A DNA stretch of 41,085 bases from a virus. The stretch lies in UHGV virus genome UHGV-0335424; one strand, written 5' to 3'. The notes beneath the pieces were generated by a model. It did not search any database and was not told the origin of the DNA. It saw only the letters and a program-made list of their open reading frames with translations. The position numbers and the translations under genes are program-made. Position 1 is the first letter of the stretch. Each line of letters starts with the position of its first letter. Positions 4,909 to 9,737 of this stretch are shown here, in pieces.

Positions 4909-5796
4909 ATGGCACAAACATGGAATCCAGATAATGTAACAGTTTATGAAACTAAAGAGGGTAAAATCCCTGACAAGTATAATACTTTGATTATCAACGA
5001 CATTATGGAAAACTCGAAAGTAATGCAATTGGCGAAATACGAAGAAATGACAGATAAGGAAAAGAAATTTGAATACTTTGCTGAAGGTCCTGGCGCATAC
5101 TGGGTTGGTGAAGGTGAGAAGATTCAAACATCTAAACCTAAATGGTTGCAAGCGACAATGGTAGCTAAAAAGCTAGGCGTGATTATTCCTGTGTCTCGTG
5201 AATACTTGCACTACAAAATGTCAGATTTCTTCACTGTTATGCAACCTAAAATTGCTGAAGCTTTCTACAAAAAGTTTGATGCGGCTGCATTACTAAACAC
5301 TGACAATCCGTTTCCACAGTCTTTAGAAGAATCTGTCGTTGCAGCGGCTAATGTTATCAAAGGTCCTTTGACTTATGACAACATTTTGGCATTAGAAGAT
5401 GCTTTAGGCAAAAATGAATTTGAACCAAATGCGTTCATCTCAAATCGTAAAAACCGCACAGAATTGCGTTCTGCCGCTCAAACAGTCGGTACAAACGTTG
5501 AATTTATCTATGACCGCTCGGCGAATACGATTGATGGTCTTCCTGTGGTTGACTTGAAAGCATTGGGTAAAGGTGAATTGTACGCTGGTGACTTTAACTA
5601 TATGTTCTATGGTATCCCATTCAACATTTCGTTCAAGATTTCAGAAGATGCGCAATTATCTACGCTTAAAAACGAAGATGGCACTCCTGTAAACTTGTTT
5701 GAACAAGAGCTGGTTGCGTTGCGTGCAACAATGGATGTCGGCTTTATGATCGTCAAAGATGCTGCGTTCGGTAAAATTGAACCGGCGGGGGAGTAA
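4909..5796 (+). CDS. Major capsid protein.
   Basis: 295 aa directly after the scaffold gene. RBS AGGAGGAA. Conserved-looking motifs (GPGAYWVGEGEKI, MDVGFMIVKD). Confidence 0.8.
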   Translation: MAQTWNPDNVTVYETKEGKIPDKYNTLIINDIMENSKVMQLAKYEEMTDKEKKFEYFAEGPGAYWVGEGEKIQTSKPKWLQATMVAKKLGVIIPVSREYLHYKMSDFFTVMQPKIAEAFYKKFDAAALLNTDNPFPQSLEESVVAAANVIKGPLTYDNILALEDALGKNEFEPNAFISNRKNRTELRSAAQTVGTNVEFIYDRSANTIDGLPVVDLKALGKGELYAGDFNYMFYGIPFNISFKISEDAQLSTLKNEDGTPVNLFEQELVALRATMDVGFMIVKDAAFGKIEPAGE

Positions 5797-6074
5797 CAAT
5801 CCCCGTTATAGGCGTTACTGTAACGCCTAAAACCTCAAGCGCAGTTGCGGGGACTGCTGGCAATAGACAATTAACAGCCACCGTTGCGCCACAAAACGCA
5901 ACAAATAAAACAGTGACGTATTCAATTGCGCCAGTAACAAGCGGATTGACAGTTTCTTCTAGCGGTAATATCACTTGGACTGACACAGTACCAGCCGGTA
6001 AATACACGACAACAATAAAAACGGAAGATGGATCACACACAGATACTCACGTTTTGACACTGACTGAGCCGTAG
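5781..6074 (+). CDS. Big_2 (bacterial Ig-like) domain ORF with no start codon, in the -1 frame. Predicted to be a C-terminal extension of the major capsid protein via programmed frameshift at GGGGG (5787..5791).
   Basis: Frame 0 is open from 5781 to TAG at 6072..6074. It reads …VIGVTVTPKTSSAVAGTAGNRQLTATVAPQNATNKTVTYSIAPVTSGLTVSSSGNITWTDTVPAGKYTTTIKTEDGSHTDTHVLTLTEP, a textbook Big_2 signature. There is no ATG/GTG/TTG start and no RBS. The capsid frame ends GCG GGG GAG TAA inside a G5 run. Confidence 0.6.
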   Translation, partial: TGGGVTIPVIGVTVTPKTSSAVAGTAGNRQLTATVAPQNATNKTVTYSIAPVTSGLTVSSSGNITWTDTVPAGKYTTTIKTEDGSHTDTHVLTLTEP

Positions 6075-6089
6075 GAAGGATAGGTACGA

Positions 6090-6419
6090 ATGGTAATTAA
6101 AGATGACGTTAAGAAGCTTCTAAGCGGTTCTACAGATGATAAGCTAGAAGTTATCGAGAGACGAACTAGAGAGCGCTTAGCGTCATTGCTAGGCGTTTCT
6201 GTTACACCAGAATCACTAGAATACATCGTTTTTGACGTAACGAACAAACGTTTTAACCGAATTGGGCAAGAGGGCATGACTTCATACGCTCAAGAGGGTT
6301 TATCTATGGCTTTTCCTGATTCGGATTTTTCAGAGTATCAAAATGAGATTGACGAATTTAAGCGTAAAGATCAGGAAGAGTTGTACAAGCCAAAGCGAGG
6401 GAGGTTTAAATTTATATGA
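6090..6419 (+). CDS. Head-tail connector protein, gp6/gp15-like.
   Basis: 109 aa. RBS GGAAGGA. Resembles Phage_connect_1 (…LEYIVFDVTNKRFNRIG…). First gene after the capsid gene. Confidence 0.65.
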   Translation: MVIKDDVKKLLSGSTDDKLEVIERRTRERLASLLGVSVTPESLEYIVFDVTNKRFNRIGQEGMTSYAQEGLSMAFPDSDFSEYQNEIDEFKRKDQEELYKPKRGRFKFI

Positions 6420-6742
6420 GATTTACAGATGAAATTATATTTGTTAAACGTTCATCTGACTCTAAATATGATCCAGATCTCGGTGAGTGGGTTGAAGGCA
6501 AACCAGAAAGAACAAGAACAGAGGCAAACGTGACAGATATTGGCACTGATAGAAGTGTGACTATTTTTGGTAGTGTGGAAGAAGGGGCGAAGGTCATTAG
6601 GACGCAGCCTCTTTTTTCTATCCCTACATTTGACTATATCGAGATTGAAGGAAAGACTTGGCAACAAAAAACAGCTAGAAATCCAGCATATAGAAATAGT
6701 CTAATTGTGCAAGAGGTGGTTCTTGATGAAGGCACAACTTGA
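6416..6742 (+). CDS. Head closure / head-tail adaptor protein, SPP1 gp16-like.
   Basis: 108 aa with overlapping start (ATGA). Position and size fit. Confidence 0.6.
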   Translation: MRFTDEIIFVKRSSDSKYDPDLGEWVEGKPERTRTEANVTDIGTDRSVTIFGSVEEGAKVIRTQPLFSIPTFDYIEIEGKTWQQKTARNPAYRNSLIVQEVVLDEGTT

Positions 6743-6956
6743 ATATAAAGGAATCGATCAGCTGATGCGACATCTGAAAAAAGCAGCAACGCTTAATGAC
6801 GTTCAAAAAGTCGTGAAAAGTAATACTGCTGAAATGACTGAACGAATGCAAAAAGGTGCGCCAGTGGATACAGGTTACTTACGAAGATCAATAAACATGA
6901 ATCTTTTAGAAGCTGGTTTAACTGGTATTGTAGGACCGACAGCAGAGTACGCGCCT
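6726..6956 (+). CDS. HK97 gp10-family tail completion protein, exon 1. Joins to 7960..8067 after intron removal.
   Basis: Reads MKAQLEYKGIDQLMRHLKK…GPTAEYAP. In the unspliced sequence the frame ends YAPC*. Exon 2 restores the conserved [12 protein letters not shown] core. Confidence 0.7.
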
Positions 6957-7959
6957 TGCTAAGATAGGGCGGACGTATGGTAACATACGGTTTGGAATCG
7001 ACCAAAATCGGTAAAAATCTTATTATAACAACGCGCAATCGAACTTGGAACATGGTATAATTAGCTTAAGGAGGCGGTACCATGTTTGAAGTTATTGATG
7101 TGCACAAAAGAAAAGGAAATGGGTTTGATAACTTGACAGGGAGACGGTTCGGTAAGTTGACCGTGATAGGGCTCTCTGCTAAAAAAGCAGGCAGGAAATC
7201 TTATTGGGTATGCCAATGCGATTGTGGCAATAAACACCTTGTTAGAAGCGATTCTTTAAAATCCGGAAACGTTCAATCGTGTGGATGCTTAAAGAAGGAA
7301 CAAGATAGTCTAAACTTAAGACGCACTACACACGGAGATACGGTTGGTGGGGAGAATCGGCTCCACGTGACGTGGCAAGGGATGAAGCAAAGGACAACAA
7401 ATCCGAACAACACAAGGTTCAATCGTTATGGTGGCAGGGGAATCACAATGTGTGATGAGTGGTCAGATTACGAAAATTTTAAATCATGGGCTTTATCTCA
7501 CGGATACAACGATTCATTAACGATTGAAAGAGTTGATGTGAACGGTATGTATTGTCCAGATAATTGCGTGTGGATTCCTTTTAAAGAGCAAGCAATTAAT
7601 CGAACAAGCACTGTTTGGATTGAGTGGAATGGTGAGCGGAAAAGTATAAAACAGTGGTCTGATGTTTTAAAAATAAATTACGGAACTCTTCATTCTAGAT
7701 ATTATAGAAGCGGTATGCGCCCACCTGAACTATTTGAACCTGTTAAAAATAAGAAAATACCGAGGTAATCAGTAAAATTAAAAATTTGCTGACACCGTAG
7801 AGCATAGGGGTTGAACCTATGCTTTTTTGTATAAAAAGCATAGAATAAAACACTCCCACGAGTGGTCGACAACCATAAAAACATGGTTGAAAATGTATGC
7901 CGAACTTACTGGTAACAGTAAGAGGTAGAGGATAAAAAGCCTTTACGATAACATAAATG
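6957..7959 (+). mobile_element. Group I self-splicing intron (1003 nt) carrying a homing endonuclease ORF.
   Basis: Exon 1 ends in U (6956) and the intron ends in G (7959). Intron 6962..6966 AGATA is complementary to exon-2 5' TATCT (P10). Intron 6967..6971 GGGCG pairs with exon-1 3' CGCCU using a U.G wobble (P1). Splicing restores the reading frame. Confidence 0.65.
7082..7768 (+). CDS. Intron-encoded homing endonuclease-like protein, with a Cys-rich N-terminal region and an HNH/AP2-like C-terminal region.
   Basis: 228 aa. RBS AAGGAGG. Motifs FGKLTVIG…YWVCQCDCGN…SCGC and RYGGRGITMCDEWSDYENFKSWALSHGY…NCVWI. Lies wholly inside the intron. Confidence 0.55.
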   Translation: MFEVIDVHKRKGNGFDNLTGRRFGKLTVIGLSAKKAGRKSYWVCQCDCGNKHLVRSDSLKSGNVQSCGCLKKEQDSLNLRRTTHGDTVGGENRLHVTWQGMKQRTTNPNNTRFNRYGGRGITMCDEWSDYENFKSWALSHGYNDSLTIERVDVNGMYCPDNCVWIPFKEQAINRTSTVWIEWNGERKSIKQWSDVLKINYGTLHSRYYRSGMRPPELFEPVKNKKIPR

Positions 7960-8067
7960 TATCTAGAATATGGCACTCGATTTATGTCGGCACAGCCTTA
8001 TGTTAGACCAGCGTTTAATTACCAAAAAGTCAAATTTATGGCTGAAATGAAAGCCTTGGTGAAATGA
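7960..8067 (+). CDS. HK97 gp10-family tail completion protein, exon 2.
   Basis: Reads [35 protein letters not shown]. The spliced product is 112 aa. Confidence 0.7.
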
Positions 8068-8459
8068 TGATTAAGACAAGAGATCAATCGATTTTTGATG
8101 AACTTTTTAAAATATCCCAAAACAAACTTGGATATAAAACATACGATTACAAAACTTTAGAGGATGTTGGTTATCCCTTTGTGGAATTTGAGAACACTCA
8201 GACCATCCATGAAGTAAATAAAACTGACATTAAAGGGTCTGTGATTGTGGTTTTATCCGTTTGGGGATTACAGAAGAAACGAAAGCAGGTGTCAAATATG
8301 GCATCTGCTCTTTTTAATGAAGCTAGATTGATAGAAGCCACAGAAGGCTATTATTGGGCTTTAAATTATCAAGCAAGTGGAATTCAAGTGATGGACGACA
8401 CAACAACGAATACACCGCTAAAGCGGGCGGTTGTCACACTTGAATTTAGAATTAGATAG
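8064..8459 (+). CDS. Tail terminator / tail component protein (putative).
   Basis: 131 aa. Its start overlaps the exon-2 stop (ATGA). Sits between the connector genes and the major tail protein gene. Confidence 0.45.
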
Positions 8460-9027: not shown

Positions 9028-9396
9028 TTGAAATTAAAAATTAAAGGTAAAGAATATTCGTTTAAATTTGGCACTAAATTTGTACGTGAATTAGACAAAG
9101 TGATGCCTTTCATCGATGGAAATATGGAATTCGGAATGGGACTCTCAGCAAAAGTCTTACCGGAATTACGTTCTTATAATGTCAACACGTTGTCACGAGT
9201 CTTAGAAATAGCAAATAGAACAGAAGAAGAAACTATTACGTTGGATGAAATGGATGATTACATCGATGAAGTTAAAGACATCGAAAAATTGTTTGATGAA
9301 GTCCTAAAAGAATTGGCGGAGTCGAACGCGGGAAAGTTAGCGGTCCGAAACCTGAATCAGAAATTGAAAGAAGCGGAAAAACAACAAGCGGAATAG
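9028..9396 (+). CDS. Tail assembly chaperone, gpG-like.
   Basis: TTG start after AGGAGG. 122 aa, acidic. Immediately upstream of the -1-frame ORF and the tape measure gene. Confidence 0.7.
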   Translation: MKLKIKGKEYSFKFGTKFVRELDKVMPFIDGNMEFGMGLSAKVLPELRSYNVNTLSRVLEIANRTEEETITLDEMDDYIDEVKDIEKLFDEVLKELAESNAGKLAVRNLNQKLKEAEKQQAE

Positions 9397-9737
9397 ATTC
9401 TGCACTGGCATACGAACAAATTCTTATCAATTCTTTTCGATATTTGGGAATGACCAATATCTCAGATATCGAAAGAATGACTTTATATGAATACAACATT
9501 CGTATGACTGCAGCCCAGTTATCTTGGCTTGACAAAGAAAAGTTGATTCACGAATTAGCGTGGGCAAATCAGCAAGTCCAAGCGGAGAAAAAAGTAGGCA
9601 AAAAGACAGTTCCTGTATATCGATCCTTTGAAGAATTCTTCAATTATCAAAAAATCGAAGATTCAATCATGGGAGTTTCCGAACTTTCAAAACAAGATAA
9701 AAAATTCCAAAGCTTACTAACTAAAGCTAACTCTTGA
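9300..9737 (+). CDS. Tail assembly chaperone gpT-like segment, expressed as a G-T fusion via -1 frameshift at G_GGA_AAG (9330..9336).
   Basis: The -1 frame is open from 9300 and has no RBS or credible start. A canonical slippery heptamer sits in correct phasing inside G. The ORF ends 17 nt before the tape measure start. Confidence 0.65.
   Translation, partial: SPKRIGGVERGKVSGPKPESEIERSGKTTSGIDSALAYEQILINSFRYLGMTNISDIERMTLYEYNIRMTAAQLSWLDKEKLIHELAWANQQVQAEKKVGKKTVPVYRSFEEFFNYQKIEDSIMGVSELSKQDKKFQSLLTKANS

Follow-up and report, generated by a model that had tools for sequence, protein, structure and literature searches.

Organization of the capsid locus

The viral genome UHGV-0335424, analysed over its full 41,085 nucleotides (nt; hereafter the window), is that of a temperate siphophage of Enterococcus faecium/E. 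lactis, complete at ~41 kb, with genes for terminase, portal, MuF, a DUF4355 scaffold, capsid, connector, tail tube, chaperones, tape measure and integrase. Overlapping the 3′ end of its major capsid gene in the −1 frame is an open reading frame (ORF) for an immunoglobulin (Ig)-like domain. Comparison of this junction with related loci leads us to propose, at a probability of roughly 0.8, that −1 ribosomal frameshifting produces a capsid-Ig fusion. The features concerned are listed below in window coordinates.

4909..5796, plus strand: major capsid protein gene, HK97-type, zero frame, 295 amino acids (aa), 33.1 kDa (PF05065, PHROG 10)
5781..6074, plus strand: −1-frame ORF, 97 codons and a stop, linker and Ig-like domain of the predicted longer capsid protein
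5787..5793, plus strand: proposed slippery heptamer G_GGG_GAG, conserved at the end of capsid and tail-tube genes that are unrelated
5794..5796, plus strand: zero-frame stop UAA, directly 3′ of the heptamer; TAA or TAG stands there in every class of locus except L014
5800..5805, plus strand: 5′ arm UCCCCG of a candidate RNA stem, 6 nt after the heptamer, in minimum free energy (MFE) and consensus folds
5848..5853, plus strand: 3′ arm CGGGGA of the same candidate stem, which outer pairs 5797-98/5855-56 lengthen
5809..5829, plus strand: inner 9-bp hairpin UAGGCGUUA-CUG-UAACGCCUA, enclosed by the stem and seen in folds with and without the heptamer

The capsid protein matches the HK97-type family PF05065 with E=1.7e-34, covering profile positions 5-278 of 280, and its gene sits in a head-module context between a DUF4355 scaffold gene and a gp6-like connector gene. 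Residue-for-residue identical copies of the protein occur in 335 contigs from E. faecium/E. lactis genomes, and 617 blocks of a public assembly collection index the exact sequence.

The capsid coding sequence ends CCG GCG GGG GAG TAA, and its frame closes within a run of five G (G5, 5787-5791), as the initial annotation of this DNA had described. This phage, whose guanine-cytosine (GC) content is 37%, makes little use of the three zero-frame codons at the site: GCG makes up 13% of alanine codons, GGG 10% of glycine codons and GAG 20% of glutamate codons. The pattern GGGGRAGTAR occurs once in the window, at the heptamer. Upstream, the −1 frame is shut by a TGA at 5778-5780; from 5781 it is open for 97 sense codons, and its earliest ATG, GTG or TTG is a GTG at 5913, in the middle of the domain, which bears out the earlier description of a 97-codon ORF that lacks a start codon. 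Given the TGA and the absence of a canonical start before 5913, entry from the capsid frame must fall in 5781-5793, an interval of just 13 nt that contains the G run. The same arrangement, in which a −1 ORF with no initiation signal of its own overlaps the gene before it at that gene's 3′ end, is found in classes A and B of the related loci. A sequencing error in the G run was considered and rejected: G5 and TAA are unchanged in all six independent assemblies checked, complete chromosomes included, and in more than 30 IMG/VR contigs, and this identity across independent assemblies means that the junction is not an artefact.

Public records treat the Ig ORF inconsistently. Its start is placed at the mid-domain GTG (52-56 aa), at an ATC (91 aa) or at an ATT upstream of the G run (102 aa), and further records contain an 88-aa call, omit the ORF or show an antisense ORF in its place. 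For one E. faecium homologue (P0001, 'MPVIGV...'; here and below, P-numbers denote proteins and L-numbers compared loci), the NCBI annotation begins at the ATC at 5799. Such disagreement among gene callers is the pattern expected where there is no real start. The antisense ORF, of 95 aa on the minus strand at 5753..6040, is a called gene in some E. faecium annotations (L191, L192) and is almost certainly spurious.

The −1 frame encodes a phage-type Ig-like domain

The initial annotation saw a textbook Big_2 signature in the −1 ORF and looked to PF02368 to support it. At the Pfam level this did not hold, as the match of 16.2 bits (E=0.01) lies below the gathering cut-off of 22.8; it is He_PIG (PF05345) that passes instead, with 29.6 bits (E=9.8e-7, cut-off 24) over residues 13-95 of 97. 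The homologous domain of L038 and L039, 67-68% identical, does exceed the Big_2 cut-off, at 27.2 bits. At the level of fold the Big_2 description stands. An AlphaFold2 model built with 49 homologues in the alignment (predicted local distance difference test score 96.2, predicted template modelling score 0.85) has nine strands arranged as an all-beta sandwich that superposes on solved Big_2 domains. The top Foldseek match in the PDB is 7quz, a Big_2-CBM56 crystal structure (39% identity, template modelling score 0.79, root-mean-square deviation 1.9 Å), followed by the phi29 capsid (gp8), T5 pb6 and the C-terminal Ig-like domain of lambda gpV (E 4e-5 to 4e-3). In PHROG the ORF matches the Ig regions at the C-termini of major tail proteins, as well as the entry 'structural protein with Ig domain'. 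We conclude that this is a true Ig-like module of the phage type, bordering on both Big_2 and He_PIG.

Variation downstream of the capsid stop follows the −1 frame

The 116 nt from the capsid stop to the first canonical start were put to a coding test in 16 distinct sequences of the Ig class. Variable columns are distributed 12/9/25 over −1-frame codon positions 1, 2 and 3. Pairwise synonymous and nonsynonymous codon differences number 872:615 in the −1 frame, 177:1149 in the zero (capsid) frame and 134:1257 in the remaining frame. This pattern indicates that the stretch is translated in the −1 frame, though nothing there can initiate. Among the relatives, then, the slip site and the frame relation are conserved and the new frame is under coding constraint.

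The same junction ends unrelated virion genes

We grouped the relatives of the Ig ORF, drawn from 45 viral contigs and from GenBank phages, according to their junctions. G_GGG_GAG followed immediately by TAA or TAG ends PF05065 capsids of several lengths, a Phage_cap_E capsid (L039, L040), the unrelated XkdG-like capsid of phage EG-TP1, PF04630 tail-tube genes (L036, L037) and further ORFs, with two such sites in L043. After each surveyed G_GGG_GAG site the −1 frame always reads GGV[T/I/V].P... and continues into either an Ig domain or a 23-aa peptide (consensus GGVTxPxIxNVTPTTDGAVIxLT). One capsid lineage, class B, has G_GGG_AAG in place of G_GGG_GAG and therein a run of only four G (G4). At L014 (2507-2531) the TAA after the heptamer is changed to CAA and the capsid frame ends at a TAG five codons on, with heptamer and −1 ORF intact; an immediate stop may therefore not be essential.

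The short peptide was also noted in its own right. As a conserved 21-23-aa sequence of the form ..SPxVGxVTPTTDGAxIxL[ST], it appears by −1 frameshift on capsid and tail-tube proteins of IME197/EFC-1-type phages (L004 3882-3953 and 5907-5978; L068 2618-2689 and 4650-4715; L036, L043, L045), and it is similar to the part of the Ig ORF that makes up the linker and first strand. At the tail-tube loci with this peptide, the following gene has its own start and holds an Ig domain.

A scan of viral contigs for the pattern GGGGGAGTAA-N3-4-CCCC(C) returned 81 matches (loci L069-L148), 16 of them at the ends of ORFs of at least 100 codons. It placed the heptamer and stop at the ends of further PF05065 capsids, followed by other −1 modules: a 94-aa beta-rich domain in L130 and a 52-aa HeH-like domain in L106 and L122. 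In L117, heptamer and stop follow a 500-aa protein, with an SLT transglycosylase domain in the −1 frame.

Other heptamers and in-frame fusions at the equivalent position

The closest GenBank phages, vB_ElaS_B1578 and 'D2SVT', are 98% identical to the window in the flanks and 87% in the capsid, and a prophage of Enterococcus sp. AZ126 is similar. In all three the capsid gene ends TCC CCA AAA GCG TAA, that is, with the heptamer C_CCA_AAA, and another start-less Ig-like ORF lies in the −1 frame. 'Acinetobacter phage D2SVT' (L002, PQ554527.1), for which the host A. baumannii is given, gives the same search statistics and locus coordinates for this module as vB_ElaS_B1578, and either this host assignment looks wrong or the sample looks contaminated. 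C_CCA_AAA precedes −1 extensions in L001, L051 and L041. The exchange extends to the 23-aa extension, which stands behind G_GGG_GAG in the IME197/EFC-1 capsid, G_GGA_AAG in the IME197 tail tube, C_CCA_AAA in L041 and A_AAA_AAA in the phiEf11 capsid, and which is in-frame on the phiEf11 tail tube.

Ig-like domains occur across phages apparently randomly in-frame or out-of-frame (PMC5009743, citing Fraser et al. 2006), and both arrangements are represented here, out-of-frame in the window and its relatives and in-frame in L038 and in Lachnospiraceae capsids. In the latter, Dorea/Lachnospiraceae prophage capsids 70% identical to that of the window carry an in-frame C-terminal Ig-like domain of ~90 aa (PF18316, E~1e-14). 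At L053-L066 (Lachnospiraceae, Dorea, Mediterraneibacter; capsid ORFs to ~2656-2752) an in-frame Ig-like domain is of SbsC_C type, and the L059 capsid has an in-frame 125-aa C-terminal extension that has no Pfam match. L038 (~2500) differs from L039 (2501) in having G6 for G5, which creates a continuous 461-aa Phage_cap_E capsid-Big_2 ORF; this could be a naturally occurring allele locked into the long form, or an error of assembly at the homopolymer.

A candidate RNA stem downstream of the heptamer

When the sequence is folded without the heptamer, 5800-5805 pairs with 5848-5853 after a spacer of 6 nt and encloses the hairpin at 5809-5829. When the heptamer is included, the G run (5788-5792) instead pairs with UCCCC (5800-5804), which suggests that the two pairings are mutually exclusive. 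A C4:G4 stem lies 4-7 nt downstream in the MFE fold of most sites, in both extension classes, and it is built from other sequences at the other heptamers: GCCCCG/CGGGGC at the A_AAA_AAA site, and ACCCCAGU/ACUGGGGU and CGCCUGCU/AGUAGGCG at C_CCA_AAA sites. The 5′ arm contains the rarest proline codon of the phage, CCC (4%), and is one of just nine C4 runs on the plus strand. No frameshift-dependent Ig ORF departs from GCG GGG ACT at the 3′ arm, while the adjacent glycine codon shows wobble variation, and self-initiated homologues have GGT or GGA instead of the 3′-arm GGG, a control of codon choice that favours the stem. The inner hairpin was considered as a stimulator and rejected, being weakened or absent in L015-type loci, EG-TP1 and L039; it is probably not essential.

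That G_GGG_GAG with its stop behaves as a portable cassette common to unrelated virion genes is modestly new. A bolder extension, which we put forward only tentatively and regard as doubtful, is that a portable recoding unit, composed of G_GGG_GAG, the stop and the C4...G4 stem and containing a three-way RNA switch, was grafted across Firmicute phages. Recombination would carry such a unit, along with its downstream module (Ig, 23-aa peptide, HeH-like or SLT), to virion genes unrelated to one another, capsid and tail-tube genes among them, and competition among the G run, the C4 run and the G4 run further downstream might set the ratio of long to short product.

Proposed recoding mechanism

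On the capsid gene, most ribosomes would terminate at the UAA at 5794-96 and release the 295-aa protein. A minority would slip back by one base on G_GGG_GAG (5787-5793) and go on reading the −1 frame as far as 6071. The initial annotation had located the slip in the G5 run, from GGG 5788-90 to 5787-89, and the sequence confirms that such a slip would read ...EPAG-GVTIPVIGVTVTPK...; we consider the site better read as the full heptamer. At the ribosomal peptidyl (P) site GGG re-pairs perfectly, while at the aminoacyl (A) site the shift from GAG to GGA requires a G:U pair in the middle position. In class B, tRNA-Lys on GAA likewise requires one G:U pair.

Two routes would lead to the fusion. Tandem slippage of the P- and A-site tRNAs, with the G:U pair tolerated, would resume −1 translation from 5793 and give the junction ...EPAGEVTIPV... 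(...FGKIEPAGEVTIPV...), with the predicted tryptic junction peptide IEPAGEVTIPVIGVTVTPK. Slippage of the P-site tRNA-Gly alone, while the A site awaits the uncommon GAG, would resume it from 5790 and give ...EPAGGVTIPV... (...FGKIEPAGGVTIPV...), with the predicted tryptic junction peptide IEPAGGVTIPVIGVTVTPK; insertion of a G would give the same junction. The junction named in the initial annotation, EPAGGVTIPV, is therefore right for a P-site slip and wrong for a tandem slip, and the two routes are inseparable in silico. Slip efficiency would probably be aided by the stop directly 3′ of the heptamer and by the stem 5800-5805/5848-5853, 6 nt downstream.

The long product is predicted to have 388 aa and a mass of ~42.5 kDa, and to consist of an HK97-type body, a short linker of glycine, valine, threonine and proline, and the Big_2/He_PIG-type Ig-like domain. 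It would join the short form in assembly, with the Ig-like domains outside the head, where they may plausibly be weakly adhesive to cell-surface or mucosal carbohydrate.

Comparison with known systems

The initial annotation had noted that Ig-like domains added by frameshifting are known in phages, and this is supported by the literature: −1 frameshifting appends Ig-like extensions to the capsids of T3, A2 and the Listeria phages A118 and A500 (PMC5009743). In gp5A/gp5B of Lactobacillus phage A2, as proposed for the window, a −1 shift one to two codons before the head-gene stop yields an Ig-like C-terminal extension (Garcia et al. 2004, cited in PMC5009743). Both A2 head-protein forms are present in the virion, proven by experiment, and essential; for the window the longer form is a prediction from the sequence. 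The two extensions are also unrelated in sequence, and the window has G_GGG_GAG rather than C_CCA_AAA. The A2 heptamer is reportedly C_CCA_AAA, the same heptamer that occupies the equivalent position in the window relatives L001 and L051. T3 (10A/10B) and A118/A500 share with the window the derivation of two capsid products from one gene by a −1 frameshift, in T3 with an Ig-like extension (PMC5009743), but differ in capsid lineage, host and slip site.

Within the enterococcal siphophages, the ORF10 head protein of phiEf11 resembles the window in having a −1 site directly before the capsid stop and a GCCCCG/CGGGGC stem 5 nt downstream. It differs in its A_AAA_AAA heptamer, in its capsid family and in its extension, which has 21-23 aa and no Ig domain. 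Two phiEf11 head-protein bands were seen on sodium dodecyl sulfate-polyacrylamide gel electrophoresis, and a −1 shift was proposed (PMC5221750).

The heptamer type itself has precedent in actinobacteriophages, where the GGGGGAA 'five-two' motif is annotated in ~1000 curated SEA-PHAGES chaperone frameshifts, with tRNA-Glu on GGA if G:U is allowed (PRFect, PMC10885494). It shares with the window the form G_GGG_GAR and the A-site G:U pair (PMC10885494). That motif, however, is found in chaperone genes of phages with high-GC hosts, whereas the site in the window lies in a capsid gene at 37% GC, has a final G and is followed directly by a stop. The searchable literature, full-text search included, holds no report of a GGGGGAG frameshift site in enterococcal phages.

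The Ig-like domains of phi29 gp8, lambda gpV and T5 pb6 share the predicted fold of the window domain and are likewise C-terminal on major structural proteins, where they are surface-exposed. In those proteins every subunit bears the domain as a constant in-frame part; in the window only a fraction of subunits is predicted to do so.

Weighing the alternatives

Several observations count against the frameshift reading or its parts. The heptamer does not conform to the canonical X_XXY_YYZ pattern. GGGGGAG itself is similar to a Shine-Dalgarno (SD) sequence and lies at 5-nt spacing from ATC 5799, so the earlier statement that the ORF has no ribosome-binding site is true only in part. For phiEf11, mass spectrometry detected no extension peptides (PMC5221750). 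The single-sequence folding z-score of the stem is −1.8, with 13 of 200 shuffles folding equally well (z-scores over the sites range from +0.2 to −4.1), stems of at least 7 bp are found at 20% of random positions in a simple stem-search null, and in RNAalifold the nine Ig-class sequences all pair at the stem in invariant form, showing no covariation. With so high a null rate the RNA element is hypothetical, and we regard a stimulatory stem as plausible but unproven. In the pattern scan, 65 of the 81 matches to GGGGGAGTAA...CCCC are not at the end of a long ORF and are mostly intergenic terminator-type hairpins, so GGGGGAGTAA-N3-4-CCCC alone is not diagnostic. Lastly, the L039 class has a −1-frame ATG with an upstream AGAGG, 22 nt before the capsid stop (L039 2486, L040 2110), and independent initiation is therefore conceivable there; in that lineage it might coexist with frameshifting. 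The ORF of this Phage_cap_E class is annotated as the 102-aa protein P0022, in a cluster of 44 member sequences.

Independent initiation is also the main alternative for the window, where we consider it unlikely. The Ig ORF would then be a small gene of its own, started at ATC 5799 or by reinitiation after the UAA with GGGGGAG serving as the SD sequence, and its product a free decoration protein of ~91 aa. This would account for the SD-like run and its 5-nt spacer to ATC, and it agrees with the 91-aa 'MPVIGV...' of NCBI in E. faecium, with 102-aa proteins called from ATT in E. gallinarum, with a GTG a few codons into the EG-TP1 ORF and with the upstream −1 ATG of L039-type loci. The supposed start is not conserved, however, being ATC in the window and L039 classes and GTC in L026, L030 and EG-TP1, and the annotated starts lie at differing positions. 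Moreover, the same heptamer and stop precede start-less 23-aa extensions, which cannot be independent genes, and the C_CCA_AAA and A_AAA_AAA found at equivalent sites are not SD-like. Where an Ig gene is truly separate, as in the tail regions of IME197 and phiEf11, it has a normal ATG, a ribosome-binding site and an extra N-terminal domain.

The same fusion could in principle arise with no ribosomal slip, if RNA polymerase added a G within G5 (transcriptional slippage) or if a subpopulation of DNA molecules carried G6, an explanation that we judge improbable. Its product would be the same as that of the P-site slip, and the G6 allele of L038 does encode an in-frame fusion, as does the ENA contig P0052 via changes at two homopolymers; both, however, may be homopolymer sequencing errors. 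G5 is constant in the six assemblies and more than 30 contigs, and the class B run is just G4. Known runs for bacterial transcriptional slippage are far longer than G5, which also counts against this explanation. That the site is exchanged for C_CCA_AAA and G_GGA_AAG, both of them classical heptamers for ribosomal slippage, suggests that the ribosome is responsible.

It is very improbable that the Ig ORF is an untranslated relic and GGGGGAG...UCCCC a hairpin for attenuation or mRNA stability at the capsid gene end, since the ability of the G run to pair with UCCCC 5800-5804 and the usual occurrence of the same pattern in other phages as an intergenic terminator-like hairpin stand against strong purifying selection in the −1 frame of the 16 distinct sequences, an ORF intact down to 67-68% identity, the high-confidence fold prediction and the lack of a U-tract after the hairpin in the window.

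Frameshifting from the capsid gene into the Ig ORF, as the initial annotation had proposed, is favoured by every comparative test run. That the locus fits the class of frameshift-appended Ig-like domains feature by feature is well supported; it departs from that class just in the canonical-heptamer rule and the Pfam Big_2 threshold.

Other loci in the window

The tail assembly chaperone pair carries a classical heptamer of the lambda G/GT type, G_GGA_AAG, correctly framed at 9330-9336 within the gene at 9028..9396, and its −1 frame continues into the frame of an ORF at 9444..9737. With G_GGA_AAG in the chaperone gene and G_GGG_GAG in the capsid gene, the phage would therefore use two different slippery sites.

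Relative to vB_ElaS_B1578, a 1,002-bp insertion at 6958-7959 splits an HK97 gp10-like tail-completion gene into pieces at 6705..6962 and 7957..8067. As with a group I intron, U is the last base of the upstream exon and G the last base of the insert. Within the insertion, an ORF at 7082..7768 encodes 228 aa with a CapR-homology domain and a cysteine-rich, homing-endonuclease-like N-terminus. An Rfam search over 5500-8300 (E up to 1) found no known frameshift element or intron.

Implications

If the frameshift reading is correct, the annotation of the capsid module of a very common E. faecium/E. lactis prophage would be corrected, at an ORF for which at least five incompatible gene calls are in use at present. 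G_GGG_GAG-stop would likewise join the list of slippery sites for low-GC Gram-positive phages. The capsid C-terminus would then be a natural display site on such phages, a parallel to the 10B extension of T7, which serves as a display site. An Ig-like domain displayed on the surface may affect the adsorption or mucosal retention of enterococcal phages, which is relevant to therapy.

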